Positions 2,753-64,000 of a stretch of 64,000 bases of DNA are shown here, piece after piece. Made by a program: the position numbers and the translations under genes. Each line of letters begins with the position of its first letter. The first letter of the stretch is position 1. This stretch comes from an uncultured Candidatus Micrarchaeota archaeon (lineage in GTDB: Archaea; Micrarchaeota; Micrarchaeia; Anstonellales; Bilamarchaeaceae): NCBI GenBank assembly GCA_903835385.1, contig CAILMQ010000063.1, positions 5,234 to 69,233 on the forward strand. Direction: 5' to 3'. The notes beneath the pieces were generated by a model that ran no database searches, was not told the origin of the DNA, and saw only the letters and a program-made list of their open reading frames with translations.

Positions 2753-2893
2753 AGCGACGGATGCGCCAAAAAAACAAAAAGCGCGAGCGCTCGCGGGCAT
2801 TTGAAGAACGGGACGGGCGACCACGGAAATCAGGTGTCTGTTTAGAAAGTCTTTAAATGCTCAAGAAAGAAACTTCAGTTAGAGGGTGGCAGA

Positions 2894-3109
2894 ATGAAAA
2901 GGGAAAGTTTAGTGGTGATTCTTACTGAAGAAGGCAAACTTGACTCACTGATGATCGCGTCTCGTGCCTCTAGAGAGGATATCGAACTCGCACTTTCCGA
3001 AACTTACTCGCTAAATGGCATTCAATGGATGGAGATACGCAAAGTTTCAATGCAATCCCTGAAAGCACTCAATAAAGCATTTGGCAAAAGGTACACTACG
3101 CACTCATGA
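2894..3109 (+). CDS. Hypothetical small protein (71 aa) in the AT-rich islet
   Basis: ATG start preceded by GAGGGTGG (Shine-Dalgarno-like). Same strand as, and 35 nt upstream of, the DpnI-like gene. No recognisable motif. Confidence 0.35.
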   Translation: MKRESLVVILTEEGKLDSLMIASRASREDIELALSETYSLNGIQWMEIRKVSMQSLKALNKAFGKRYTTHS

Positions 3110-3143
3110 AAGATTAATAAGTTGCTGACTTGTTTTAAGCTGT

Positions 3144-3917
3144 ATGGACCTTGATTTGCATGATACCTGGGTTTTAACAAATTATAAAAGTCCTTCACAA
3201 CAAGCCCGTTTGATTACAGAACGGTGGTTCGCTTCGCAGATGTACTGCCCCAATTGTCTGAATTTGCATATTACCCCCGCGGAAACCAATGCTAAAGTTA
3301 TTGATTTTTTATGCAAGAACTGTGCCCATGAGTTTCAGCTCAAAAGTAAGAAAAGCAAAATATCTGGCAAGATAACCGATGGTGCATATCGTCCAATGAT
3401 TGAGAGGATTGAAGCCAATACTGCGCCAGACTTTTTCTTTATGGAATATTTGCCAGAAGAATGGATGGTGAAGAACCTTTTTCTTATACCGCGTTTTTTC
3501 ATGAATAAAACGATAATAGAAAAACGGCGCCCGCTCTCGAGCACTGCTGAAAGAAGAGGGTGGATTGGTTGTAACATCCTGTTTTCAAAAGTGCCGGAAG
3601 AAGGCCGAATAGCCGTAATCAAAGATGAGACCGCTATTCGAAAAGAAGATGTCCAAAAAAAATATCGAGCACTGGCCTTTTTGGACTCAAAAAACTACGC
3701 CCAGCGAGGGTGGTTTGCAGATGTTTTATATTTCGTAAGAAAATTGGACTCAAAATCCTTCAGTTTGAGTGATATGTACGGGTTTGCAGATGAATTGGAA
3801 AAATTACATCCCGAAAATAAGCATATCCATGAGAAGATACGGCAGCAACTGCAAATACTGCGAGACCGCCGTATCCTGCACTTTGACGGGAACGGAAGAT
3901 ACAGTATCGTAAAATAA
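3144..3917 (+). CDS. DpnI-family type IIM (methyl-directed) restriction endonuclease
   Basis: From memory, it is collinear with S. pneumoniae DpnI. Shared elements: YKSPSQQARLITERW, CPNC...CKNC zinc site, FQLKSKK, DGAYRPM, APDFFF, ERRGWIGCNI, and a C-terminal winged-helix tail ending HEKIRQQLQILRDRRIL..GRY. Length (257 aa) is similar. The gene is markedly more AT-rich than its flanks. Confidence 0.85.
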   Translation: MDLDLHDTWVLTNYKSPSQQARLITERWFASQMYCPNCLNLHITPAETNAKVIDFLCKNCAHEFQLKSKKSKISGKITDGAYRPMIERIEANTAPDFFFMEYLPEEWMVKNLFLIPRFFMNKTIIEKRRPLSSTAERRGWIGCNILFSKVPEEGRIAVIKDETAIRKEDVQKKYRALAFLDSKNYAQRGWFADVLYFVRKLDSKSFSLSDMYGFADELEKLHPENKHIHEKIRQQLQILRDRRILHFDGNGRYSIVK

Positions 3918-4028
3918 GGGTCAGTGTTTTCGCTGCCAGGTATTTATGGCATTATGGTGTCTATTCGCTTTTTACAAAGAACATAGTGGAGAAGCGACGA
4001 ATAACCGAACTAATGAGAATATGTAAGT

Positions 4029-6278
4029 TTATTGCAGCAGCTTGGACTTCTTCTTCCACTCCTCGATGGTGTCCTTGAACTTCTCGCGCGGTATGAAAAG
4101 CGCGCTGTCCGTATCCTCGTCCTTCATGATTACGAACACCAGCCTGTCGCCCACCGCGGCGAAGCTGGAGAGCTCGGCATGCCCGAGGGATTTGGCGAGC
4201 GAGCGCAGGTAGCCCCGCAGCTTGAGCGAGAGCGCCGCAGGGACCGTTGCTGCGCCCCGCGCCATGTGCGCCGCCGCCAGCTCGTCCTTGCGGATGACAA
4301 TGGCCCCTTCGAGCAGCCCGTGAGCCACCATGCCGGCGATGAGCGATTCGGAGGTGACCTTCTTCTTCTTTATCCCATCATGCTCGAACACAACGCCTTC
4401 GGCGGCGTGTTCCCTCGCATAGCGCGACAGGCACCATGCCCGCAGCGAGGCGGGCACGGTGATGAGCGAGCTTATATCCACCTCGTCCTGCTCGGCAAGC
4501 AGCTGGTTTATGTGCTCAGACCATTTCGGCCAGCTCGCATCCGCAGTCTTCTTCCTCTCCGCGAGCCGTTCGATGGCGCTCTCCACGTCGCCCAGGTCCT
4601 TCTCTATCATCTTCTTGCTGTCCGGCGTCATTTTCCTGGCGGACTCGTCCACCCTCTCCGGGGAGATGGAGGCCAGTATGTCGTACTCCGCGCTCACATC
4701 GAACTCCTCCCTGGAGCAGGCGTCCACCAGCTGCTGGAGTTCCGTAATCTTGTCCTTGACGCTGGCCGCCCTGGCGATGAACAGGTCCTTCTCCTCCCGT
4801 ATCACAACCCCGTAAATCCTTTCCAGCGCCATTATCTTCAGCCGGTTCTCCAGCGCAGTGTAGAGCAGGAAAAGGCCGATGAACATGCAGCCCACGCTCA
4901 CGAGCGACGCGGCCGCGTTTATGCTCAGGACGAGCCCGGTGAAATAATCCACCGAGCTGAACAGGGAGCTCGGGGCCGTCGCGTCCGGCGCCACGAACGC
5001 CGCCACGTAATAGCCGATGACGAGCAGGACGATGCCGATGATGGCGTCAGTCTTCCAGCGGGGCTCCGCCTTGCCGATGGCCTTGCGGACTCCGGCCATC
5101 ACGCCCAGCTTGTTCATCTCTGCCCATGCCACATTATATGCGATGGCCAGCAGGTTGACCGCTATCATGAGGATTATGAGCGTGAGCGAGAGCGATATGC
5201 CGAGCGCTATGAAGAAGCTGCCCGTGATGCCGTAGAGGATGTTGAACAGTGAGTCGGGCACTATGAAAAGCCTGAGGTCAAGCTTGTTCACCACGAACGC
5301 GGGGGAATGCAGGCCTGCCACAAGCTCTTCGGGCAGCCTGGCTGACTTGAACCTGTACGCCATCATGTCGCCCGAGGACGTCGTCCGTTCCGAATCCCAG
5401 TCTATGGTGTAGGCGGAGCCGTTCCTGGCAACCTTTATCAGCTGGTTGGAGCTCAGGTTGTCCTCGCTTGCCAAAAATCCAGGCGGGATGGTGTCCGCGA
5501 GCTCCACGTTGCTGCCGGGTTCGCCATTGGTCCAAACAGTGACGAAATAGTTGTAGCTCGCAGGCCGGGCTTCGTAGGTGCCTATCTGGCCCGCTGTGGA
5601 GGCGAGCATGTCCGCCCCTACATCCGTCCTTGTGCAGAGCAGCAGTTGCTGGCTGTTGTACATCGGGTTGCTGTACATGTCGGCCATGGCCCCGACCAGG
5701 CCGAGCACCTTGTTGAGATAGGCGTTCTTTTCGTCCACCGACGCGTTCCTCTGCCTGATGATTTCGTCGCGCACCTGGAAGAAAATCCCGTCCATGCGGT
5801 TCCTGTCGTTTACGAATTCCACCATCGAGGCGGGCACCGCGTCCTGGTAGCCGGTGAGCAGCTTGTTGCATTTGTAGGCGCCCTTGCACAGCGCGGTGCA
5901 GGTGCTGACGTCGGTGCAGTCCTTCTTCAATCCGGCGTTGGCCGCGCACGCCTCGAAGGCGAGGGAAGAGTCTCCCGAAACCGCATCAAGATTCGAGCGC
6001 ATGGTCACGAGCTGGAGGTCGCTGAGGTTCTTGAAGGACGTGTAAGCGGCAGTGTTGTGCACCGCCACCGCGATTTGCCTCCTTATGGTGTGGCCTTCCA
6101 CAGTGACCGGGTAGAAATCATAGACCATGAGGTCCGTCGCCCCGTCCCCGTCCAGGTCGTACTTCTGCGTATTGAATACGGTTTCCTGCTTCGTCTCGGG
6201 ATAGGCCTTGGTTATGGTGCAGCCGTATGCCATTGACAGGGCTAGCACGGCTAGGAGGATGAGGGCCGGATTGCGCAT
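4029..6278 (-). CDS. Large membrane protein with lipoprotein-like signal peptide, function unknown
   Basis: N-terminus MRNPALILLAVLALSMAYGC resembles a signal peptide with lipobox Cys. A DLDGDGATD Ca-binding-like loop is present. A Cys-rich extracellular region is followed by a cluster of TM helices mid-protein and a charged, coiled-coil-like C-terminal domain. Confidence 0.6.
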   Translation of the reverse strand: MRNPALILLAVLALSMAYGCTITKAYPETKQETVFNTQKYDLDGDGATDLMVYDFYPVTVEGHTIRRQIAVAVHNTAAYTSFKNLSDLQLVTMRSNLDAVSGDSSLAFEACAANAGLKKDCTDVSTCTALCKGAYKCNKLLTGYQDAVPASMVEFVNDRNRMDGIFFQVRDEIIRQRNASVDEKNAYLNKVLGLVGAMADMYSNPMYNSQQLLLCTRTDVGADMLASTAGQIGTYEARPASYNYFVTVWTNGEPGSNVELADTIPPGFLASEDNLSSNQLIKVARNGSAYTIDWDSERTTSSGDMMAYRFKSARLPEELVAGLHSPAFVVNKLDLRLFIVPDSLFNILYGITGSFFIALGISLSLTLIILMIAVNLLAIAYNVAWAEMNKLGVMAGVRKAIGKAEPRWKTDAIIGIVLLVIGYYVAAFVAPDATAPSSLFSSVDYFTGLVLSINAAASLVSVGCMFIGLFLLYTALENRLKIMALERIYGVVIREEKDLFIARAASVKDKITELQQLVDACSREEFDVSAEYDILASISPERVDESARKMTPDSKKMIEKDLGDVESAIERLAERKKTADASWPKWSEHINQLLAEQDEVDISSLITVPASLRAWCLSRYAREHAAEGVVFEHDGIKKKKVTSESLIAGMVAHGLLEGAIVIRKDELAAAHMARGAATVPAALSLKLRGYLRSLAKSLGHAELSSFAAVGDRLVFVIMKDEDTDSALFIPREKFKDTIEEWKKKSKLLQ

Positions 6279-27509: not shown

Positions 27510-28808
27510 ATGAATTTCCGCTATTTGCTATTACTCCTATTGTTGCCATGCATGGTATGCTCGGCAGATACGCTCAGCACGGACACGCCCGAGTGCAACG
27601 TGTCATTCCATGATACGCTGCTGATGCGGGCGCTGGATGCCGCGCACAGGCCCATCGAGGGCGCGGCGCTATACGCATATTACCAGTACTCGGGTTCCAT
27701 CGGGACCCACGGCCAAGACAGCACCTACTATGGCGTGGGCCCGCTCACCACGAACAGCTCCGGCCTGGCGCAGGCCCAGATAGTGAACATCGAGGCTGAT
27801 GAATCCAGGGTGGACTGCAACGTGGAAATAAGCGCCGTGGCCGGGGGAGTGAACGTCACCACGGACATAACCGCCATGCAGCACCCGCATATCATAGACG
27901 TGGGCATCCCCGTATACCTGGTGGTTTTCCATGTCATCGACCCGACCGCAGCCCCGCTCGCGAACGCAACCGTGTGGTTCAACAACGAAACCAAAACCAC
28001 GGACGCGCGGGGGTTCGCGAAGTTCTACGCCCCGATTGGCGCAGCGGACTACCTCATCAGCTATCTGGACGGCAAGCAGCCTGGCAGCATCATGGTTTCC
28101 AACGATGTCAATTTCCAGGCTATAATAAAGTATTACCCGGTCACGGTCCAGGTGGTTGACGATAACGGCAATCCGCTCAATGCCACGCTCGCAACCGGCA
28201 CCAAAGTGGTCCAGCTCGGTTCCAACGGCACCTATTACGACCCGAAGGTCTTCGGCAACAGCTTCCAGTTCAACGTTTCCTACGCGGGCGTGGTCAAGGA
28301 GTCCGTGATGAATCCGGAAACCGACAACCCGAAAAAGGTCCTATACGATTTCACATCGCCGGCCATCGGCACAGTCGTCAAATCGGAGTCGGACGGCAAG
28401 GTCAGGCTTACCATACCGGTCACTGACCCCGGCCTCTACCCGAGTGGCGTGGACCCGGCAAGCATCTCGGTCACCTACAGGGCGGAGTCTGCGACACAGT
28501 GGAGCAGGGCGGTCACTTTCACATCAGCGAAAGGCGTGTTCGCGGCGGATTTTCCGGAGTTCCCTCCGAACAGCGTGATCCAGTTCAAGGTTGAGGCGTC
28601 GGACCTGGAGGGCAACAAGGCCTCGGTGGACGGCCGCTTCAGCACGCTGCCTCCGCCGCCTGCAAACAGCTCCAACAGCTCCATAACCCCGCAGTCACAG
28701 GCGCCCGCGGGGCAGGGGCTTCCGCTGGTCGGCATAGTGGGCGCAATCGCGCTCCTCATTTTCCTGGTTTACATGTTCTATCGTCTGAAAGGGGGTGGTG
28801 ATTCATAA
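27510..28808 (+). CDS. Secreted surface protein with C-terminal TM anchor (S-layer/adhesin-like)
   Basis: Signal peptide MNFRYLLLLLLLPCMVCSA. Many N-x-S/T sequons. A Pro/Ser-rich stalk is followed by LPLVGIVGAIALLIFLVYMFY and a basic tail. Confidence 0.6.
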   Translation: MNFRYLLLLLLLPCMVCSADTLSTDTPECNVSFHDTLLMRALDAAHRPIEGAALYAYYQYSGSIGTHGQDSTYYGVGPLTTNSSGLAQAQIVNIEADESRVDCNVEISAVAGGVNVTTDITAMQHPHIIDVGIPVYLVVFHVIDPTAAPLANATVWFNNETKTTDARGFAKFYAPIGAADYLISYLDGKQPGSIMVSNDVNFQAIIKYYPVTVQVVDDNGNPLNATLATGTKVVQLGSNGTYYDPKVFGNSFQFNVSYAGVVKESVMNPETDNPKKVLYDFTSPAIGTVVKSESDGKVRLTIPVTDPGLYPSGVDPASISVTYRAESATQWSRAVTFTSAKGVFAADFPEFPPNSVIQFKVEASDLEGNKASVDGRFSTLPPPPANSSNSSITPQSQAPAGQGLPLVGIVGAIALLIFLVYMFYRLKGGGDS

Positions 28809-55170: not shown

Positions 55171-55710
55171 ATGTCATTCCGGTCGTTTGCAGGCCTGCGC
55201 CTGCTCGAGTGGTTTCTCGCAAACCCCACCCAAAGAATCCATTTCAAGGAATTGTGCCGCAGGCTCGGGCTCGCGCCGCTGTCCGTGAAAACTTATTGCG
55301 AGGAATTCCTTGCGCAGGGGTGGATACTTGAAGACCGGACCGCAAACCTCAGGATATTCCATCTGAACGACGCGGACTGCCGCATCAGGGCCATGAAAAA
55401 GGCATGGTTCCTGCAAATCCTGAGCGAATTAAAGATAGAAACCGTTGTTGATGACAGGGCCATATCCTTCGCTCTGTTCGGAAGCCATGCGTCGGGCGGT
55501 TTTGACGAAAAAAGCGACATAGACCTTATCGTTATAGGCAGGAAAGAGAACGTTGATTACAGCCGCGCGGAAAAGCTCGGGGATATCATAAAAAAGCAGG
55601 TCCAGCTCACCGTGATACCATTGGCCAGGTGGGAGAAGAACAAAGCCACCGACCCGTTCATCATGTCCGTTGCCAGGAACCACGTTCTGCTCAGGGGGCT
55701 GACGCTATGA
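55171..55710 (+). CDS. Minimal nucleotidyltransferase (MNT) with N-terminal winged-helix domain
   Basis: LFGSHASGGFDEKSDIDLIVI matches the GSxAxG...SDxDLxV MNT motif. The N-terminal roughly 90 aa look like a wHTH. Confidence 0.75.
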   Translation: MSFRSFAGLRLLEWFLANPTQRIHFKELCRRLGLAPLSVKTYCEEFLAQGWILEDRTANLRIFHLNDADCRIRAMKKAWFLQILSELKIETVVDDRAISFALFGSHASGGFDEKSDIDLIVIGRKENVDYSRAEKLGDIIKKQVQLTVIPLARWEKNKATDPFIMSVARNHVLLRGLTL

Positions 55711-56120
55711 CGTTCGAGGATTGCATCAGGAAAGGTTTGATCAGGAAATCCGAAAGCACGAAAGAAAAGATCGAACAGTCTCTCGCCCTTGGCGACAAGT
55801 TCCTCAAAGCCGCCGGGAAAAACCTCAAAATGGAAGAATACGAGGTTTCCGAAATCATATCCTACAATGCACTGTTTCATTATGCCCGGGCATTGCTTTT
55901 CCAAAAAGGGTATAACGAAAGAAGCCACGCCTGCCTTTTCCTGGCATTGAAGGAACTTTATCCGGACAACAAAGAGCTTTTCGACAAGGCTGATAAAATC
56001 AGGGCCGAGCGGCATAACCTTCAATATTCCGGACTGGCCACGGACCTGGAATCGGTTGAGTACGTGCTCGGATTCGTAAAGGAATTCAGGGTCAAGGCGG
56101 AAAAACTGCTGAAACGCTGA
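55707..56120 (+). CDS. HEPN-domain protein (partner of MNT)
   Basis: Overlaps the MNT stop by ATGA. All-helical, 137 aa, with an IRAERHNLQY motif of the R..R(N/H)...Y HEPN type. Confidence 0.7.
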   Translation: MTFEDCIRKGLIRKSESTKEKIEQSLALGDKFLKAAGKNLKMEEYEVSEIISYNALFHYARALLFQKGYNERSHACLFLALKELYPDNKELFDKADKIRAERHNLQYSGLATDLESVEYVLGFVKEFRVKAEKLLKR

Positions 56121-57021: not shown

Positions 57022-57762
57022 ATGGAAGGAAGAGAGGGCAAAAGGGTCGTGCGCTACACCCACCCGGTGCTCTTTGAAGTGGACATAAACCACCTCTGCT
57101 GGTTCGTTGACCTCACCGAGAGGAACCCGGATGCCAGGCTGGTTTCCACGCTGTCCACGGTCCATGGGAACACAATCATCAACATCGTCCAGCTTTCCTC
57201 CCCAACGCCGAAAAAGGACATAGACTTCATCAAAAGGCATCCGCTTGTCAAGGCCGTGGAAATAGTGATGCTCAACCCCTCGTCCGCGATGCTCAAAGTC
57301 ACGTCCAGCTACCAGGCTATGACGTATCACATCCTTCACCGGACGAACGTCACGCTCCTAGAATCCCCGGTCACCAGCAACGGCCTTGACACGGAACTCC
57401 TGCTCGCCAAGTCGCACAAGGACATGGACGAACTACTCAGCATGTGGAAGGAGCAGAAGGATTACTACGACGTGAAGCTGAAAAAGAAGCGCTACCTGGA
57501 GCCCGGGGAGTCGGCCACGTTCAACGTTTTCAGGACAAGCGGCTTCTTTGACCTCAAAAGCGCGAAGGGCATGCTCACCCCCAAGCAGTTGGAGGTGTTC
57601 CGGCTCGCCTGCGACTACGGCTATTACGACATGCCCAAGAGGATCACAATAGAGGAGCTCGCGGAGCGGACCGGCCTCTCCCCATCCACGCTCGCCGAGC
57701 ACCTCCGCAAGGCAGAGACCAGGCTGCTGCCCGTGCTCTGGAAAGTGCTGAACAAGATGTAG
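57022..57762 (+). CDS. Bat-type HTH_10 transcriptional regulator
   Basis: The C-terminal LTPKQLEVFRLACDYGYYDMPKRITIEELAERTGLSPSTLAEHLRKAETRLL is the bacterio-opsin-activator-type HTH_10 domain. Confidence 0.7.
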   Translation: MEGREGKRVVRYTHPVLFEVDINHLCWFVDLTERNPDARLVSTLSTVHGNTIINIVQLSSPTPKKDIDFIKRHPLVKAVEIVMLNPSSAMLKVTSSYQAMTYHILHRTNVTLLESPVTSNGLDTELLLAKSHKDMDELLSMWKEQKDYYDVKLKKKRYLEPGESATFNVFRTSGFFDLKSAKGMLTPKQLEVFRLACDYGYYDMPKRITIEELAERTGLSPSTLAEHLRKAETRLLPVLWKVLNKM

Positions 57763-57789
57763 CAAACCCGCTGCAGAGCGGCATCAGGG

Positions 57790-57797
57790 ATATATCC
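57790..57797 (+). promoter_or_regulatory. TATA-like ATATATCC upstream of the first array gene
   Basis: Lies 23-30 nt upstream of the ATG at 57820. A second AT block, TATAATTAT, abuts the ATG. Confidence 0.3.
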
Positions 57798-57819
57798 GAG
57801 TTATCAGCAGTATAATTAT

Positions 57820-58593
57820 ATGCAACCAGAGTTACAGGAAGCGCTGAGCAAGGGGTGGAAAAGCACCTGCAAATCAATCTTCGGCGAAGAAATCGGCGAG
57901 CTGGAGGAATACGCGGATTACCTGGGGGAGGCGGTGGTCGGGAGGACGGCGAAATCCTCCTTTTCGGGAAAAAGCCTCTGGGTGGCCTCCAGGAACCATT
58001 GCGAAGGCGCGAGGTTCTTCGACTTTACGGAGGAAAGCGCCCAGCTGGCGAAATTGAAGGGCTCGCTGGACATCAACCGCATAAAGGACATTGATTCGCT
58101 GCTTGAAGGGCTCAGGGAAACCCTGGTATACAGCGGCAACAAGGTGACCGGGAACTCGAAATTCGTGGAGCATTCCGACTCCGTGATAGACAGCATGCTC
58201 ATATTCAACTCCTCCATGGTCATCGGCGGCAAATGCCAGGCATATACCTACGTGCAGCAGTACGCCGAATACGCGTTCGGCTCAACCTCAAGCGGCCAGT
58301 CCGCGAACATCATAAGGTGCTTCTACAACAACAGCCTCAACCGGTGCTTCGAGGTGTGCGCCACGGTGAAGGCCTCGGACTCCCATTTTTCCTACAACAT
58401 CTGGAGCTGCAGCGACTGCATGTTCTCATTCAACCTCAGGAACAAGACGCACAACATAGCCAATGTCCAGCTGGGCAAGGAGCAGTACCACGGCCTCAAA
58501 TGCAAGCTGCTGGCTGAGATTTCCCAGGAGCTGAAGAGGAAAAAGCGGCTGGATTACTCCATACTGGACATAGCAAACGGGGCGGTCGCATGA
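57820..58593 (+). CDS. Cys-rich hexapeptide-periodic paralog, A-type module (A1)
   Basis: N-terminal LSKGWKSTCKSIFGEEIGELEEYADYL, mid INRIKDIDS, C-terminal CSDCMFSFNLRNKTHNIANVQL...Y..LK.KLLAEI. No signal peptide or TM helix. Confidence 0.75.
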   Translation: MQPELQEALSKGWKSTCKSIFGEEIGELEEYADYLGEAVVGRTAKSSFSGKSLWVASRNHCEGARFFDFTEESAQLAKLKGSLDINRIKDIDSLLEGLRETLVYSGNKVTGNSKFVEHSDSVIDSMLIFNSSMVIGGKCQAYTYVQQYAEYAFGSTSSGQSANIIRCFYNNSLNRCFEVCATVKASDSHFSYNIWSCSDCMFSFNLRNKTHNIANVQLGKEQYHGLKCKLLAEISQELKRKKRLDYSILDIANGAVA

Positions 58594-59399
58594 ACGAGGA
58601 GCTGGAAAAGGAGTTTCAGAACACCACGCGGCTGCTGGTTGGGAAGGAGTTGCACGGCCTGGACGACTATTCCGAATGGCTCGGCCAAAGGGTCCCGCTT
58701 CCAAGGGAAACCAAGTCCGCAATCAGCGGCAAGGAGGCCTGGGTCGGCCCGCCGCTAATCTATCTCGGAAAGGAGTTCAACCTCAGGAACGCCATCCTGC
58801 TGGAGGAGATGGACCAGGCGAACGAATCGCCTTTCACTGCCGAAGACGTTGCCAAGGCCTCGCTTAGGGGCATAATGGGGAAGCTCCTGAGCCCTGTCAG
58901 GTACCATATCGCGAACATGCGCTACCAGGCCCATGAAAACGTCTGGAAATGCAGCGGCGCCGGAGGGGGGAGGAACATCTACCATTGCGACGACGTGTAC
59001 CTGGACGTGAAGAACGTGGCATATTCCAACTACACCCTGTGGTCGCACAACGCGTTCGGGTGCCACGGGGTGACGAGTTCCGGCTTCGTGATGCACGCCT
59101 ACAACTGCTCCAGGCTGGCCCGCTGCTTCGAGGTTGACGGCTGCTCGGACTCCAGTGGCCTGCTGTTCTGCCACAACTGCGAGAACGTGCAGGACTCCAT
59201 GTTCTGCTTCAATGCCAAGAACCTGCGCTACGCCATAGGCAACCTGCAGGTTCCGCCGGACAGATACAAGGAGATAAAATCACGCGTTCTCGCTGAAATC
59301 GCCGCAGAGCTGGAGAAAAACAAGTGCCTGAAATGGGACATATTCAACATCGGGTGCAAGAGGGAAGCGCTATGGTATCGCAGGCTTACGACGCCCTGA
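58590..59399 (+). CDS. Cys-rich hexapeptide-periodic paralog, B-type module (B1)
   Basis: ATGA overlap with A1. N-terminal EKEFQNTTRLLVGKELHGLDDYSEWL, C-terminal RCFEVDGCSDS..LFCHNCENVQDSMFCFNAKNLRYAIGN...ELEKNKCLKWDIFNIG. Confidence 0.75.
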   Translation: MNEELEKEFQNTTRLLVGKELHGLDDYSEWLGQRVPLPRETKSAISGKEAWVGPPLIYLGKEFNLRNAILLEEMDQANESPFTAEDVAKASLRGIMGKLLSPVRYHIANMRYQAHENVWKCSGAGGGRNIYHCDDVYLDVKNVAYSNYTLWSHNAFGCHGVTSSGFVMHAYNCSRLARCFEVDGCSDSSGLLFCHNCENVQDSMFCFNAKNLRYAIGNLQVPPDRYKEIKSRVLAEIAAELEKNKCLKWDIFNIGCKREALWYRRLTTP

Positions 59400-60955
59400 A
59401 CCGCTCGTGGAAAAGCACCTGCAGGGTCCTGCTCGGCGATGAAATCGGCGAGCTTGCGAAGTACGAGCCCTGGCTTTCCGAGCACCGCGTGCCTTTGCTT
59501 AGGAAAAAATCAGCCCTCTCGCAAAAGGACATCTATTGCGCGACGACCGATTACGCGGACGGCGCGGAGTTCGTTTCCCTCGACGAGGTGGACTACGGCA
59601 AAAAGTTCCAGCCCCTGGGCATCAACGAGATAAAGGACATCGACTCCATTGTGGGGGCGGTCGGGGAGCGCTTCCGATACTGCGGGAACGTGGTTCTAGG
59701 GAATTCAAGCCACGTGGAAAACAGCTCAGACGTCCAGAACTCGTTCTATGTGCTCGGGTCCAACTTCATCTATGATTCCGAATACGTCGCCTATTCCTCC
59801 TATTGCCGCGGAAGCAAGCACCTTTTCGCGGTCATCAGCGACTACAGTTGCGACCACCTCATAAGGGTGTTCGAAACCCACAAGCAATCCCGCTGCCTTG
59901 AGGCGTGGAAATGCTACAATTCCAGCGACTGCTACTTCTGCTGCAGCGTGGAAGGCTCCCAGGACGCGATGTTCTCCTTCAACCAGAAGAACAAAAGGAA
60001 CGTTATCGGGAACATGGAGCTCCCCAGGGAGAGGTATTTGCAACTGAAGGAAAAGCTCGTCTCGGAAATAAGGGAGGAGCTGCTCAGGAACAAAAAACTT
60101 TTGTCCCTGATGGAAATCGTCTCCGCCAGCGCCAAACCCATGAAACTTCCGAAGCTGGAATCCAAAGTGCTTGGCGAGGATGGCGACAAGGCGCCCATTG
60201 AGGCGGCGTTCGGGAAAACCACGAACGTGGTGCTGGGAAAACCGCTCCATGACTTCGAATCCTACGGCCCATGGCTCAAACAGCACGTCCCCCCCGTGCT
60301 TGAGCGGCGCTCGGCCGCGACCGGGAAAAGAATGCACATTCCCGGCGTAACGCCCTGCACCCTTTTTCCGTCCGACCGCCTTGTGGATATGGACGAGTAC
60401 TGGCAGATAGGCGAGAGCACAAGGCTGGACGAGCCGGACATCAAGTCCCTGGACAGCATAAAGGAATCAGTCGGGAAGATCGCCTTCGCCAATCCGAACG
60501 GCACGCTGGGCGAATGCAGGAATATCATGCTCGTGCCCCTTTGCAACACCTCCATAAACTGTTACTGCTGCCCCATAGCCTCGTTCAACGAAGGCGCGGC
60601 GTTTTCGTACTGGCCAAGGACCTCCAAGTTCGTGTTCGGCTCGGCCCTGGCGTTCTCGTCCAGTTTCTGCATAAACAGCTATTACTCCGTGAACCTTTCC
60701 CGAACGTTCGAGGTGGACGGGTGCAACAACTGCTCGGACGCGTATTTCTGCCACAACTGCGAGAACGTGCAGGACTCCATGTTCTGCTTCAATGCCAAGA
60801 ACCTCAGGTTCGCAATCGGGAACTCGCAGATGCGGCCCGAGGAATACAAAAAGGCGAAAACCCTCATCTTGGGCCAGATTGCGGACGAGCTGGAGAAAAA
60901 CAAGAGCCTGAAATGGGATATATTCAACATAGGAGCCAGGACGGTGGGAACATGA
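59372..60955 (+). CDS. Fused A-type + B-type module protein (A2-B2)
   Basis: The ATG at 59372 gives MVSQAYDALNRSWKSTC..., the same N-terminus as A1/A3/A4. The A-type end (AMFSFNQKNKRNVIGN...EIREELLRNKKL) is joined by a linker to a B-type start at about 60197 (IEAAFGKTTNVVLGKPLHDFESYGPWL). The B-type end is CHNCENVQDSMFCFNAKNLRFAIGN...ELEKNKSLKWDIFNIG. Confidence 0.75.
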   Translation: MVSQAYDALNRSWKSTCRVLLGDEIGELAKYEPWLSEHRVPLLRKKSALSQKDIYCATTDYADGAEFVSLDEVDYGKKFQPLGINEIKDIDSIVGAVGERFRYCGNVVLGNSSHVENSSDVQNSFYVLGSNFIYDSEYVAYSSYCRGSKHLFAVISDYSCDHLIRVFETHKQSRCLEAWKCYNSSDCYFCCSVEGSQDAMFSFNQKNKRNVIGNMELPRERYLQLKEKLVSEIREELLRNKKLLSLMEIVSASAKPMKLPKLESKVLGEDGDKAPIEAAFGKTTNVVLGKPLHDFESYGPWLKQHVPPVLERRSAATGKRMHIPGVTPCTLFPSDRLVDMDEYWQIGESTRLDEPDIKSLDSIKESVGKIAFANPNGTLGECRNIMLVPLCNTSINCYCCPIASFNEGAAFSYWPRTSKFVFGSALAFSSSFCINSYYSVNLSRTFEVDGCNNCSDAYFCHNCENVQDSMFCFNAKNLRFAIGNSQMRPEEYKKAKTLILGQIADELEKNKSLKWDIFNIGARTVGT

Positions 60956-61752
60956 CGGACACGGCCTCTGGAACGGATGACAGCGTCCTGTACGCGGCGC
61001 TGGACAAGGCGTGGAAATCCACGTGCAAGGCGGTCCTGAAAGGCGAAATCGGGGACCTGAAAGACTACAGGGAATACCTGAAAAAATACACCGACCCTGT
61101 GGAATACAGGCGCTCCTTCATTTCAGGGAAAGAGGTGTCCATATCCTCCAGCCGCTTCAACAGCAATGCGCGCTTCCTGGACAACAACGAGGCCGCGGAA
61201 TACAACAGCAGGCTCGCTGCCATGCCCCTGGGCATAAACAGCATAAAGGACATGGACTCCGTTGCGGAGGCGATTTCCGAGAGGGCGTGCTATGCAGGCA
61301 ACATCGTTCTGGGCAATTCCGCGCACGTCGCACGGTCCCACCGCGTGGTGAACACTAACTACGCGCTGGAATGCCAGGACATCTATGACGGGAAATACGT
61401 CGCCTACGCCTCATCCATGCGCTACCCCGAGTATTTCTTCGGAGGCGGGGTGGGGAGCGTGTCCCAGTTCTGCATAAAGACGCAGGAGAACTACAAGATG
61501 GCCAGGTGCATGGAGACCATACACATGAATATCACGTCCGACTGCTATTTCTGCGCCAGTCTGGAGAACTGCAGCGACTGCATGTTCTCCTTCAACCAGA
61601 AGCACAAGCGTTTCCTGATAGGCAACCTCCAGCTGCAGAAGGACGATTATGCCGCGCTCAAGGACAAGCTTCTCGCCGAGATACGCGAGACGCTGCAACG
61701 GGACAAATCCGTCATCTCCATAGCTGAAATCATAGGTGGTCAGCGTGGATGA
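60952..61752 (+). CDS. Cys-rich hexapeptide-periodic paralog, A-type module (A3)
   Basis: ATGA overlap with A2-B2. LYAALDKAWKSTCKAVLKGEIGDLKDYREYL, GINSIKDMDS, SDCYFCASLENCSDCMFSFNQKHKRFLIGNLQL. Confidence 0.75.
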   Translation: MTDTASGTDDSVLYAALDKAWKSTCKAVLKGEIGDLKDYREYLKKYTDPVEYRRSFISGKEVSISSSRFNSNARFLDNNEAAEYNSRLAAMPLGINSIKDMDSVAEAISERACYAGNIVLGNSAHVARSHRVVNTNYALECQDIYDGKYVAYASSMRYPEYFFGGGVGSVSQFCIKTQENYKMARCMETIHMNITSDCYFCASLENCSDCMFSFNQKHKRFLIGNLQLQKDDYAALKDKLLAEIRETLQRDKSVISIAEIIGGQRG

Positions 61753-62524
61753 GTACGAAAAGGCGTTCCAGTCAATCGCCTCGGTCGTGCTGGGAAGGAA
61801 GCTCGCAGGATACCGCGATTACGAGGTATGGCTCACCAGGGGCATAAATGGCATGACCGAGGTCCGGTCTGCCATGAGCGGAAAGCGGACGTACCTGCCG
61901 CTGTTTTCCTTTTACGATGCAATACGCCATAGGCTGCTGACCGAGGACGAGGCCTATGGGACGGCTGGAAAGAGGCACCTGTCCGAAGAGGAGGTGCGCG
62001 GCCTGTCCCTGGCGAACGCAACTCAGGCGCTGAAGGGCATCTCAATCACCACCTCCGAGACGTCCATGGGCACATGCAGCCGCATCAAGGAATGCGGGGT
62101 GTATTTCGATTCCTCGGCGTGCTTCAGGAGCAGCCTCGTGGCCATGAGCAAGTATGCGATTTACACCTTCTGGCCCAGGAATTCGGAATACGTCCTGGGG
62201 TGCAATTACGTCTTCTCGTGCAGCTTCTGCGCCAGGTGCTTCAATTCCGAGAACCTGGCCCGCTGCTTCGAGGTCAGCGATTCAGCCAACTGCAGCGACT
62301 GCTATTTCTGCTACAACTGCGACAGCCTACAGGACTGCATGTTCTGCTTCAATGCCAAGGCCAAGAAATACGCCATAGGCAACGTGCAGCTGCCGCCCGA
62401 GCAATACCGGAAGATAAAGGGATTGCTTCTGGCCCAGATGGCGGACGAGCTGGAGAAAAACAAGAGCCTGAAATGGGGCGTATTCAGCATCGGAGCGCCG
62501 CAGCCAGGGAAGCGGCCGGAATAA
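61736..62524 (+). CDS. Cys-rich hexapeptide-periodic paralog, B-type module (B3); GTG start
   Basis: There is no in-frame ATG near the A3 stop; GTG candidates are at 61736 and 61745. YEKAFQSIASVVLGRKLAGYRDYEVWL start and RCFEVSDSANCSDCYFCYNCDSLQDCMFCFNAKAKKYAIGN...ELEKNKSLKWGVFSIG end. Confidence 0.7.
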   Translation: MVSVDEYEKAFQSIASVVLGRKLAGYRDYEVWLTRGINGMTEVRSAMSGKRTYLPLFSFYDAIRHRLLTEDEAYGTAGKRHLSEEEVRGLSLANATQALKGISITTSETSMGTCSRIKECGVYFDSSACFRSSLVAMSKYAIYTFWPRNSEYVLGCNYVFSCSFCARCFNSENLARCFEVSDSANCSDCYFCYNCDSLQDCMFCFNAKAKKYAIGNVQLPPEQYRKIKGLLLAQMADELEKNKSLKWGVFSIGAPQPGKRPE

Positions 62525-62534
62525 GGGGCAGGAC

Positions 62535-64000
62535 ATGACGCCGCAGGCTTATGACGTACTAAACCGCGCATGGAAGAGCACCTGCAGGGTGGTTCTCGGC
62601 GCCGAGGTCGGCGAGCTGGAAGAATACAAGGGATGGCTCGGGGAATACCTTCCGCCAGTTGGGAAAAGGAAATCCTATATTTCGGGCAGGGAGGTCACGC
62701 TCGCAAACCCGCGCTATCCGGATGACGCAAGGTTCGTCTCCATGGAGGAAATACGCGAGAAGAAAGCCGACCCCTTGGGCATCAACGACATAAAGGACAT
62801 GGATTCCGTAGTCCGGGCGGTCTCCGAGCAATGGGAATACGCCGGCAACAGGGTGCAGGGCAATTCCGCCATGGTGGAAGCGTCCGATATCGTGGTTGAC
62901 TCCCAGTCGGTTTCAGGCTCCACGGACATAGCGCAGTCGCAATATGTCTTTTCTTCGTTCATGGTCAGGGGCGGGTCAAAGTACATATTCGGCTCCGGCT
63001 GGTTCAGCAAAACCGAATTCGCCATAAGGCACGTGAGCGGGTTCAACAATGCCCGGATTCTTGACAGCTCCCTTGTCACGGATAGCAGCGACATATACTA
63101 TTGCCATAACATGGCCGGTTGCATGGACGCGATGTTCTCTTTCTCCCAGAGGAATTCCAGGCATTGCATCGGGAACCTCGTGCTTCCCAAGGACAAATAC
63201 CTGCCTTTGAAGTCCAAGCTCCTCTCGGAGATAAGGGAAGAGCTGAAGGCGAAGAAAAGGTTTCCGTCCCTGATGGACATGGTGGCGGATAAAGGAACGG
63301 CCGGCGGAACCCTCGAGCTGCCGGAGAGGAATGAGAAAACCGACATCGTTCCGGTGGAAAAGGCGTTCTCATCGCTTTTCCGGATCTTGTTCGCGAAAGA
63401 ACCCGCAGGAATGGGCCCGTGCGAGAACTGGCTGCTAAGGAACATCCCGCCCATCCAGGAAGTGGAATCGCCGTTCGGGCGCAGGACATTCGTGCCGGCT
63501 GACGAGTCATTCGCCTGTTTCTACAGGTTCCCCAGAAACCGGATTGTCACGCTTTACGAGGCGCTGGAACTTGGGAAATTGAGATTGAACGAGCGCGATA
63601 TGGCCAGCCTGGGAAAAATACAGGAAAACCTGAAGGAAATAGCATTCTTCACGGCAGAGCTTGTCGGAGGCAATTCCAGCAATGCAATGAAGTCCCCGGT
63701 GGTCTATAACTCATCCAACATATACAAGGTATACGACGCCACATATTCCGAATACGCCAGCATGGGCTCGCTCAGCCTGAATTCCAAATACGCGTTCGGC
63801 TGCTACCGGATAATAGACTCCGAGTTCTGCCTCAAATGCAACAACTCCCTGCGCCTCAGCCGCTGCTTTGAGATGGACAGCTCCTCTAACTGCCTGGATT
63901 CCATGTTCTGCCATAACTCCGAGGCGCTGAGCGACTGCATGTTTTGTTTCAATGCCAAGGCCAAAAGGCATGCCATCGGCAATGCCCAGTTAGCGCCCGA
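62535..64000 (+). CDS. Fused A-type + B-type module protein (A4-B4), 3'-truncated by the window edge; absent from the ORF track
   Basis: Hand translation from the ATG at 62535 finds no stop through nt 63998. MTPQAYDVLNRAWKSTCRVVLGAEVGELEEYKGWL..., GINDIKDMDS, GCMDAMFSFSQRNSRHCIGN. The B-type start is at about 63354 (VEKAFSSLFRILFAKEP...ENWL), leading to SRCFEMDSSSNCLDSMFCHNSEALSDCMFCFNAKAKRHAIGN. Confidence 0.75.
   Translation, partial: MTPQAYDVLNRAWKSTCRVVLGAEVGELEEYKGWLGEYLPPVGKRKSYISGREVTLANPRYPDDARFVSMEEIREKKADPLGINDIKDMDSVVRAVSEQWEYAGNRVQGNSAMVEASDIVVDSQSVSGSTDIAQSQYVFSSFMVRGGSKYIFGSGWFSKTEFAIRHVSGFNNARILDSSLVTDSSDIYYCHNMAGCMDAMFSFSQRNSRHCIGNLVLPKDKYLPLKSKLLSEIREELKAKKRFPSLMDMVADKGTAGGTLELPERNEKTDIVPVEKAFSSLFRILFAKEPAGMGPCENWLLRNIPPIQEVESPFGRRTFVPADESFACFYRFPRNRIVTLYEALELGKLRLNERDMASLGKIQENLKEIAFFTAELVGGNSSNAMKSPVVYNSSNIYKVYDATYSEYASMGSLSLNSKYAFGCYRIIDSEFCLKCNNSLRLSRCFEMDSSSNCLDSMFCHNSEALSDCMFCFNAKAKRHAIGNAQLAP

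Follow-up and report, generated by a model that had tools for sequence, protein, structure and literature searches.

A strictly paired family of predicted thin beta-solenoid proteins encoded beside a HerA/TrwB-type ATPase in Micrarchaeota

What are the proteins encoded by a six-gene array at the end of a 64,000-nucleotide stretch of DNA from an uncultured Candidatus Micrarchaeota archaeon (contig CAILMQ010000063.1, positions 5,234 to 69,233; this whole stretch is called the window below), why do they occur in alternating pairs, and what do they work with? From position 57820 to beyond position 64000 of the window, six genes on the plus strand encode eight homologous modules of about 260 amino acids (aa) each, arranged in the order A1, B1, A2-B2, A3, B3, A4-B4. 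The original prediction, made from the letters of this stretch, had described this arrangement, had assigned the modules to no nameable family, and had proposed that A and B modules are distant paralogs that work together as a heteromeric unit. The structural and organisational description reached here, comprising the A-B pairing, a predicted solenoid, covariation between the modules and a recurrent gene neighbourhood, is in our judgement very probably correct, while the function of the unit, which may be that of a partner or client of an ATPase encoded next door, is a more tentative matter. The gene coordinates agree with the predicted number, strand and order of the modules:

57820-58593, plus strand: A1, single A module of 257 aa; orthologous cluster 6 (always split)
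58590-59399, plus strand: B1, single B module of 269 aa with 11 cysteines; start overlaps the A1 stop (ATGA)
59372-60955, plus strand: A2B2, 527 aa, A and B fused in one protein; orthologous cluster 1
60952-61752, plus strand: A3, 266 aa, lone A module of the always-split orthologous cluster 8; begins at an ATGA shared with the A2B2 stop
61736 or 61745 to 62524, plus strand: B3, single B module; overlaps the end of A3
62535-64000, plus strand: A4B4, fused protein of orthologous cluster 4; runs past the end of the window, which contains 488 of its 527 aa

Neighbouring genes of the array overlap by 4-28 nucleotides (nt), two of them as ATGA stop/start, or are separated by a 10-nt gap, and this close spacing suggests that the array is one operon with translational coupling. 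B3 measures 262 aa if read from the GTG at 61736 and 259 aa from the GTG at 61745, the start called in ENA, and A2B2 is identical in sequence to the database protein P0001. Beyond position 64000, the account relies on the ENA gene calls for the same contig, according to which A4B4 has a full length of 527 aa, ends about 118 nt past the window and is the last gene of the array. One population variant, represented by the ENA contigs that carry P0001, lacks A4B4 and passes directly from a B3-like gene (257 aa) to the ATPase, so the copy number of the array differs between close strains. The sequence motifs quoted for the modules (WKSTC, IN.IKD.DS, MFSFN, RCFEV...FCHNCEN...MFCFNAK...AIGN and ELEKNK.LKW) are all present as described, as are the 11 cysteines of B1, and the predicted absence of signal peptides and transmembrane helices holds, with no 19-residue window exceeding a Kyte-Doolittle mean of 1.4.

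The eight modules are significantly related to one another, as had been supposed. In pairwise BLASTP comparisons with the database size fixed at 1e8 residues, A modules share 35-46% identity with each other (E 1e-42 to 1e-71), B modules share 31-40% (E 1e-22 to 1e-60), and A-B pairs align over nearly the full module length at 24-31% identity (E 1e-10 to 1e-26). Hidden Markov models (HMMs), one built from A halves and one from B halves, tell the two types apart without ambiguity, scoring 250-400 bits on their own type versus 120-160 bits on the other, and these models were used to type every module in 81 loci. Among the 150 complete units found in 77 non-redundant loci, an A module is always followed directly by a B module on the same strand. 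Fusion of the two proves to be the rule and not the exception: 128 of the 150 units are fused into a protein of about 525 aa and 22 are split into adjacent genes.

The same order is seen in 268 database proteins, which comprise 234 A-B proteins, 27 end-truncated fragments, 3 single A modules, 2 single B modules and 2 A-B-B proteins; neither a B-A nor an A-A order occurs in this set or in the 150 complete units. A doubled B module is known only from the triple-module A-B'-B proteins P0035 (730 aa, N-terminally truncated) and P0043 (822 aa), in which the middle module combines a B-like start with an A-like C-terminal tail. The idea that these longer relatives of 730-822 aa carry an additional, informative domain was rejected, as they are triple modules without a new domain. 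With A never lacking a directly following B in the 150 units, and with the covariation between modules described below, the proposal of a paired heteromeric unit is supported, the five single-module proteins in the database aside.

Loci contain from 1 to 7 units, the largest arrays being one of seven fused units (locus L013) and two of 12 modules (loci L004 and L008), and one genome (contigs JBAZLG01) holds at least 12 A-B units, or about 19 kb. Of the four units of the window, those in clusters 6 and 8 are split and those in clusters 1 and 4 are fused, and these clusters recur with their states unchanged in loci L004, L006, L007, L008 and L058. This recurrence of the same split clusters across loci indicates that the split genes are old and functional, and not assembly errors, and the split state has the appearance of a fixed trait of a few old clades. 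A Fitch count of fusion versus fission requires only 6 changes on a tree built by the unweighted pair group method with arithmetic mean, though the root of this tree is unreliable.

A search with A2B2 returned more than 535 proteins, all annotated as hypothetical and without a Pfam domain, and the organism names among these matches are limited to Candidatus Micrarchaeota, Micrarchaeia, ainarchaeum, Anstonella and Bilamarchaeaceae. Searching 1.84 billion representatives with a profile retrieved at least 346 clusters (50% identity) at E<=1e-30, 652 at 1e-10 and 1838 at 1e-3, and nearly all of its best 150 matches are about 525 aa long. Scanning one genome per GTDB species yielded 270 relatives, the best 76 loci all being from Micrarchaeota, and orthologs in different genomes share 60-68% identity. 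The family thus defined by sequence is large and unnamed and, among named matches, appears only in Micrarchaeota, a lineage of the DPANN archaea. IMG/VR viral contigs contain no relatives, and a viral origin of the family was rejected on this ground.

The earlier statement that the modules belong to no nameable family is upheld by every search made. For the six window proteins, Pfam gives no family at E<=1, and scans against NCBIfam, PADLOC and PHROGs give nothing meaningful; among 71 diverse members, no Pfam family is matched by more than two. Sequence and profile searches of the PDB, run with the whole protein, with two alignments of the family and with an alignment of the solenoid alone, produced nothing below E 0.2, and a Foldseek search of the A2B2 model against the PDB and BFVD produced no match at E<=1e-3. 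Full-text searching of the literature turned up no paper on the family or on its association with the ATPase; a 2026 preprint on cysteine-rich repeats concerns unrelated eukaryotic repeats.

An AlphaFold2 model of A2B2 (from a 111-sequence alignment) has a mean per-residue confidence (pLDDT) of 89 and a predicted template-modelling score (pTM) of 0.90. In this model each module consists of an alpha/beta N-domain of about 100 aa, a beta-solenoid of about 112 residues, and a C-terminal helix of about 22 residues followed by a short conserved tail. The modelled solenoid is made up of some 18 short strands at exact 6-residue intervals (residues 103-212 in A), which is in keeping with the beta-helical scaffold named earlier as one candidate for the fold. 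The eight solenoids of the window, each 112-114 residues long, can be aligned almost without gaps and follow the hexad x-x-[VIL]-x-[ND]-S; their terminal coils (MF.FN.KN..IGN) are the best-conserved part in both types. The predicted parts map to the following positions:

58129-58464, plus strand: A1 solenoid
58902-59243, plus strand: B1 solenoid
59372-59677, plus strand: A2B2, N-domain of the A half
59678-60013, plus strand: A2B2, solenoid of the A half
60014-60136, plus strand: A2B2, helix and tail of the A half
60137-60187, plus strand: A2B2, linker
60188-60496, plus strand: A2B2, N-domain of the B half
60497-60829, plus strand: A2B2, solenoid of the B half
60830-60952, plus strand: A2B2, helix and tail of the B half
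61291-61626, plus strand: A3 solenoid
62048-62383, plus strand: B3 solenoid
62838-63176, plus strand: A4 solenoid
63648-63983, plus strand: B4 solenoid

The number of residues per coil was read from covariation. Mean-field direct-coupling analysis of 352 non-redundant A+B units (effective number 324; positions such as 62, 461 and 522 are given in A2B2 numbering) shows a single sharp peak of mean coupling at a separation of 12 residues in both solenoids (0.39 and 0.38, over a background of about 0.03) and no signal at a separation of 18 in either. Secondary couplings at a separation of 6 join core residues that face each other, V127 and I133 among them. Each coil of the solenoid is therefore made of two hexads, or 12 residues, which gives about nine coils in a thin two-sheet structure. 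A first reading as a left-handed beta-helix with an 18-residue coil, which was drawn from the six-residue strand period and the top Foldseek matches, is rejected by this 12-residue coil.

The conspicuous cysteines had prompted the suggestion of a metal, iron-sulphur (Fe-S) or redox protein. Most modules contain 9-14 cysteines, A4 only 4, and the cysteine-rich columns all lie at the inward-facing hexad positions 3 and 6. In the non-redundant set, solenoid columns of this kind are 16-79% cysteine and exchange freely with serine, alanine, valine and threonine, a pattern that lends no support to an Fe-S or redox role. Apart from one pair described below (62-522), no two cysteine columns are correlated with phi above 0.54. 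No cysteine of the A module reaches 90% conservation. In B, C433, C463 and C472 are conserved at 96-98% and H461 at 96-100% among close relatives, but in a more diverse alignment the three cysteines fall below 90% and of these residues only H461 remains at or above it. No Fe-S, zinc-finger or other metal-binding Pfam family recurs among the 71 diverse members. Judged from these alignments, the cysteines appear mostly to line the solenoid core in a core-packing pattern, as in the 12-residue helix of the Tenebrio molitor antifreeze protein (TmAFP).

The exceptional pair bears on how A and B fit together. Position 62 of A and position 522 of B, which lie in different modules, show the third strongest coupling of the entire protein; both residues are cysteine in 100 units, only position 62 in 10, only position 522 in 19 and neither in 223 (phi 0.81). 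Traced on a tree, one column changes 52 times and the other 58, but jointly they account for only 70 changes; about 40 of the changes thus coincide, and the signal is not simply one of shared ancestry. Within the window, the separate A1 and B1 both carry the cysteine, and the fused A2B2 has alanine at both positions:

58000-58002, plus strand: codon of Cys61 in A1, the A-side partner of the covarying pair
59355-59357, plus strand: codon of Cys256 in B1 (motif NIGC), the B-side partner of the covarying pair

Weaker couplings run between the tail of B (518-519) and positions 10 and 68 of the A N-domain, and between the tail of A (244-250) and the last part of the B N-domain (362-373). Others tie the C-terminal coils of A (185-225) to the N-domain of B (338-357), and residues 61, 93 and 97 of the A N-domain to the C-terminal coils and helix of B (449, 454, 479, 499, 502). 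The C-terminal coils and tail of each module thus appear to dock onto the N-domain of the partner. Together with the pTM of the model, these inter-module couplings indicate that A and B would form an obligate, rigid, antiparallel heterodimer of pseudo-two-fold symmetry.

The two interfaces of such a dimer would not be equivalent. The A N-domain has 19 near-invariant columns and the B C-terminal coils have 22, whereas the B N-domain has 9 and the A C-terminal coils have 10. The better-conserved interface would bring Y61, K88, D89 and D91 of the A N-domain together with E447, H461, N462, E464, K476 and position 522 of the last B coils and tail, and K88, D89, D91, E447, H461, N462, E464 and K476 are still conserved in the more diverse alignment. 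From this asymmetry of conservation we infer that each A-B unit probably has one functional composite site and one degenerate site.

If these proteins form a composite site, the gene neighbourhood may indicate what they act with. On the window's own contig, the ENA calls place a convergent gene for a 672-aa DUF87 ATPase directly after A4B4, followed by a PALP enzyme. Among loci retrieved with A-B modules, a DUF87 ATPase adjoins the array in about 20. In the reverse test, which started from 56 metagenome loci retrieved with an alignment of the ATPase, an A-B module lies within 800 bp in 37 of the 56. With respect to the ATPase, the A-B genes are convergent and downstream in 24 cases, co-directional and upstream in 8, co-directional and downstream in 5, and divergent in 1. 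In 14 of the 19 ATPase loci without A-B, the contig ends no more than 700 nt (mostly less than 200 nt) past the 3' end of the ATPase gene, the side on which A-B genes most commonly lie, and two further negatives are not evaluable. In loci L004 (17778-21605, minus strand) and L008, a fused A-B gene, an open reading frame (ORF) of 77 aa and the start of the ATPase gene overlap on the same strand, which suggests an operon of A-B, small ORF and ATPase. The ATPase is 48-87% identical between genomes whose A-B units are about 40% identical, and its named homologues are all from Micrarchaeota.

The regulators in the neighbourhood follow a pattern of their own. The array of the window is preceded by a regulator gene in the same direction:

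57022-57762, plus strand: HTH_10-type transcription regulator of 246 aa, directly upstream of the array (Pfam HTH_10, E 2.9e-20)
57763-57819, plus strand: intergenic region with the AT-rich boxes ATATAT (57790-57795) and TATAATTAT (57811-57819)

An AT-rich box of this intergenic region is a possible archaeal TATA box, which would yield a leaderless or short-leader transcript. The HTH_10 regulator family was met in 27 of the loci examined, with a homologue in the same position upstream of arrays, and the synteny of HTH_10 regulator, A-B genes, ATPase and PALP gene recurs in about a dozen loci. Dispersed A-B genes often stand head to head with a regulator of about 330 aa that has two AsnC-type winged helix-turn-helix domains; such AsnC-type regulators lie within 1 kb of the start of A in 14 of 20 cases. 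Regulators in this head-to-head position include the following:

Locus L003, 8949-9911: tandem AsnC-type regulator
Locus L020, 939-1943: tandem AsnC-type regulator
Locus L028, 8934-9959: tandem AsnC-type regulator
Locus L076, 15746-16849: tandem AsnC-type regulator

Comparative gene order thus strongly supports a core Micrarchaeota gene cluster that would consist of an HTH_10 regulator, a variable number of A-B units and then a HerA/TrwB-type ATPase, which here lies just outside the window.

The type of the ATPase is recognised from its predicted structure. Its AlphaFold2 model (pLDDT 77.5) matches HerA with a Foldseek E of 5e-12 and TrwB with a template-modelling score (TM) of 0.61-0.64 and a root-mean-square deviation (rmsd) of about 5 A, and further matches include DndH-C and the Sir2-HerA and DUF4297-HerA complexes. 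At the sequence level, known families match only around the P-loop, weakly to TraG-D_C, TraD and EccCb (local, E 1.6e-4), and PADLOC gives weak matches to HerA and mad8 models. The model has a single P-loop domain and a predicted beta-rich N-terminal domain, with none of the N-terminal helices expected of a membrane anchor. The C-terminal tail is disordered (residues 579-645 in the model of P0275), is rich in proline, glutamate and lysine in the L004 sequence, and varies greatly in length among the homologues P0269-P0388, whose total length ranges from 500 to 992 aa. Genes for a conserved membrane channel or secretion apparatus were not found among the neighbours.

ATPases of the HerA family typically act with a partner encoded alongside them, such as NurA, Sir2 or DUF4297. 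By analogy, the A-B units may be partners or clients of the soluble, presumably hexameric HerA/TrwB-type translocase next door, a reading that we prefer to its rivals and that nonetheless remains tentative. On this reading the numerous old paralogs, of which one genome has at least 12 units, would be alternative forms of the same ATPase partner, and the dedicated adjacent regulators, HTH_10 at the core locus and tandem AsnC-type beside the dispersed copies, could switch these versions individually. The composite polar site might bind or process whatever the ATPase handles, for which nucleic acid is the obvious candidate. Taken to its full extent, the proposal describes a machine specific to Micrarchaeota and so far undescribed, in which a new, thin, cytoplasmic heterodimer with 12-residue coils would come in individually regulated versions and work with a ring translocase; this fuller picture is a serious possibility, though less likely than not.

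Several observations weigh against a partnership with the ATPase. In the window's own lineage the ATPase gene is convergent with the array, so the two are not co-transcribed there, and many A-B genes are dispersed, far from the ATPase gene. In loci L103 and L126 the 2.2-2.5 kb that follow the ATPase contain no A-B gene, with almost no upstream flank present, and in locus L088 a PALP gene lies between the ATPase and the array, which begins 1.5 kb away. Synteny within one phylum can also partly reflect shared ancestry. Neither A nor B contains a recognisable catalytic or nucleic-acid-binding domain, and the isoelectric points (pI) of the modules are near neutral (5.8-8.3), with no hint of DNA binding or mimicry; the idea of a DNA mimic was rejected for this pI range. 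The underlying structural picture has its own soft points, in that both the composite site and the geometry of the dimer are deduced from the covariation of only about 324 effective sequences, and the B solenoid is modelled with moderate confidence (AlphaFold2 pLDDT 63-74).

The alternative that survives best is a self-assembling structural polymer, in which A-B units would stack through their solenoids, end to end or side by side, into a cytoskeletal or scaffold fibre functionally similar to bactofilins, with the ATPase and regulators only loosely linked to it. The rigid predicted solenoid of fixed length in all eight modules would suit such a fibre, as would the strong conservation of the terminal coils in both types, the ordered arrays of old paralogs with conserved orthologs across genomes, and the cytoplasmic appearance of proteins without an export signal. 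However, covariation places the helix and tail that follow the solenoid on the N-domain of the partner, so that the solenoid ends may be capped, and no bactofilin or other polymer-forming family is matched. Dispersed single copies with their own regulators are also better suited to alternative isoforms than to a fibre of fixed stoichiometry, and the number of units varies, from 1 to 7 per locus and also from strain to strain. On balance we consider a polymer unlikely.

Rather less likely is a translocated cargo, whereby a TrwB/VirD4-like ATPase would recruit A-B heterodimers and export them, for example toward a host cell, following the logic of type IV coupling proteins or of type VII secretion (EsxA/EsxB, PE/PPE). 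Micrarchaeota are host-dependent episymbionts, and a single highly conserved ATPase (48-87% identity) beside many diverged, paired paralogs without Sec signals is what such a system might look like. The structural closeness of the ATPase to TrwB and its weak TraG-D_C, TraD and EccCb matches point the same way, the conserved C-terminal tails common to all paralogs could serve as signals, and the tightly covarying cysteine pair would suit a disulfide in an extracytoplasmic protein. Yet the N-terminal domain of the ATPase is predicted to be beta-rich and not to consist of membrane-anchor helices, the neighbours include no conserved membrane channel component, and covariation puts the conserved B tail inside the heterodimer, where it would not be free to act as a signal. 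The good conservation of orthologs between genomes (60-68%) is likewise unlike that of the usual fast-evolving effectors.

A HerA-based anti-virus defence system, with A-B units as effector or sensor partners comparable to those of Sir2-HerA or DUF4297-HerA, is improbable. The ATPase does resemble the HerA of these complexes and weakly matches the PADLOC HerA and mad8 models, and variable copy number and diverse paralogs would be at home in defence, but the ATPase and its cluster are widespread in diverse Micrarchaeota, with synteny in about a dozen loci, whereas defence islands are usually patchy; moreover, A and B have no PADLOC match and no nuclease or NADase domain, and viral contigs hold no relatives. 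Least probable is that the modules are metal, Fe-S or redox proteins or hexapeptide-repeat enzymes (acyltransferases or left-handed beta-helices of the gamma-carbonic-anhydrase kind), readings for which the high cysteine content, the 96-100% conservation of H461, C463 and C472 in B among close relatives, the left-handed beta-helix enzymes that make up the top Foldseek matches and the layout reminiscent of LpxD and gamma-carbonic anhydrase are outweighed by the exchangeable cysteine columns, the four cysteines of A4, the low correlation of all cysteine columns other than 62-522, the lack of a recurrent Fe-S or zinc-finger family among members, the coil of 12 and not 18 residues with a hexad unlike that of hexapeptide repeats, the non-significant structural matches, and the presence of at least 10 paralogs per small genome, which would be unusual for such enzymes.

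Other genes of the window were noted alongside the array. A second DUF87/AAA_10 ATPase has no A-B neighbour and is unlike the array-associated ATPase of about 650-700 aa. A nucleotidyltransferase gene and an overlapping HEPN-domain gene between carB and PCNA have the look of an MNT-HEPN toxin-antitoxin pair. A gene for a DpnI-type methyl-directed restriction endonuclease falls in the 2001-4000 block, the only clearly low-GC block of the window (48.8% versus about 57-60% elsewhere), and may have been gained horizontally. Four long ORFs have no Pfam match at E<=1e-5, and a single RNA gene was detected in the window. Their positions are as follows:

17-2752, plus strand: ORF of 911 aa
3144-3917, plus strand: DpnI-type methyl-directed restriction endonuclease (DpnI, E 6.5e-64, and DpnI_C)
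4029-6278, minus strand: ORF of 749 aa
27323-27394, minus strand: tRNA-Gly(GCC)
27510-28808, plus strand: ORF of 432 aa
42172-43608, minus strand: second DUF87/AAA_10 ATPase, 478 aa
46356-48242, minus strand: ORF of 628 aa
55171-55710, plus strand: nucleotidyltransferase (NTP_transf_2), 179 aa
about 55707-56120, plus strand: HEPN-domain protein, 137 aa

Micrarchaeota are host-dependent DPANN archaea with genomes of about 1 Mb, in which most lineage-specific genes are of unknown function. Against this background, the heavy genomic investment in A-B units (at least 346 clusters, and at least 12 units in one genome), their conserved orthologs, their own regulators and their tie to the ATPase point to an important and possibly lifestyle-defining function. 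If A-B units do act as partners or clients of the ATPase, the resulting machine could move DNA or proteins between symbiont and host, or serve the host-dependent lifestyle in some other way, and neither its fold nor the system would have any characterised relative. The structural interest is separate from this. A cytoplasmic solenoid of 12-residue coils with a core lined by cysteine, serine and valine would be an architecture otherwise known from secreted insect antifreeze proteins, placed here in a heterodimer that would be pseudo-symmetric, with one site conserved and the other degenerate. The family is a well-defined candidate for a Pfam entry and for structure determination, for which a 1:1 A-B complex and a contact between Cys61 of A1 and Cys256 of B1 are predicted, together with, more tentatively, binding of the unit to the ATPase.

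How, then, do the A-B modules and their locus compare with systems already known? Among systems, the nearest analogy appears to be that of HerA with an adjacent partner (HerA-NurA, Sir2-HerA, DUF4297-HerA), in that an ATPase of predicted HerA/TrwB fold adjoins A-B genes in most evaluable loci, though the A-B proteins are not homologous to NurA, Sir2 or DUF4297, lack a nuclease or NADase domain, and occur as many paralogs per genome. EsxA/EsxB and PE/PPE proteins likewise form tandem, alternating heterodimer pairs in many copies per genome, lack a Sec signal and are served by an ATPase of the FtsK/HerA superfamily, but they are helical hairpins of about 100 aa and not solenoid modules of about 260 aa, and neither the six window proteins nor the 71 diverse members match a WXG100 or PE/PPE family in Pfam. 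Their EccC-type ATPase is membrane-anchored and multi-domain, whereas the array ATPase has a single P-loop, no anchor in its model and no secretion genes nearby.

Bactofilins share a compact beta-helical core of about 110 residues, and several bactofilin paralogs often lie in one operon. They differ in coil length and have no counterpart to the flanking folded domains or to the A-B pairing; bactofilin (DUF583) gave no Pfam or NCBIfam match and is absent from the top 50 Foldseek matches of A2B2. Hexapeptide proteins with a left-handed beta-helix (gamma-carbonic anhydrase, LpxA/LpxD, GlmU, PglD) share the six-residue strand periodicity, and LpxD and gamma-carbonic anhydrase have an N-domain, a beta-helix and a C-terminal helix in the same order, similar to the A and B modules. 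They are the best Foldseek matches of A2B2, without reaching significance (E 0.06-1, TM 0.1-0.2, rmsd about 10 A). Their coil has 18 residues versus 12 in the modules, and their motif [LIV]-[GAED]-X2-[STAV]-X differs from the xxVx[ND]S of A and B, where the small residue follows three, not four, positions after the aliphatic one; Pfam Hexapep (PF00132) matches none of the six window proteins or the 71 diverse members.

The nearest structural analogy appears to be the 12-residue helix of TmAFP (PDB 1EZG, repeat TCTxSxxCxxAx), which has the same coil length and, as in the A and B modules, small inward residues (cysteine, serine, alanine) at every third position. It was the sole beta-solenoid to surface in the PDB profile searches, at E 7.3 and 9.9, and it did not surface with the solenoid-only profile. 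TmAFP is, however, a secreted protein of 84 residues that has a disulfide in each coil and binds ice through a TxT face, whereas the A and B solenoids sit between an N-domain and a helix, lack a signal peptide and have cysteines that are not conserved as pairs. The A and B modules fall outside the hexapeptide, TmAFP, bactofilin, WXG100 and PE-PPE families and all tested Pfam and NCBIfam families. The locus most resembles a beta-solenoid heterodimer coupled to a HerA-type system, and its proteins have so far appeared in databases only under the label hypothetical.

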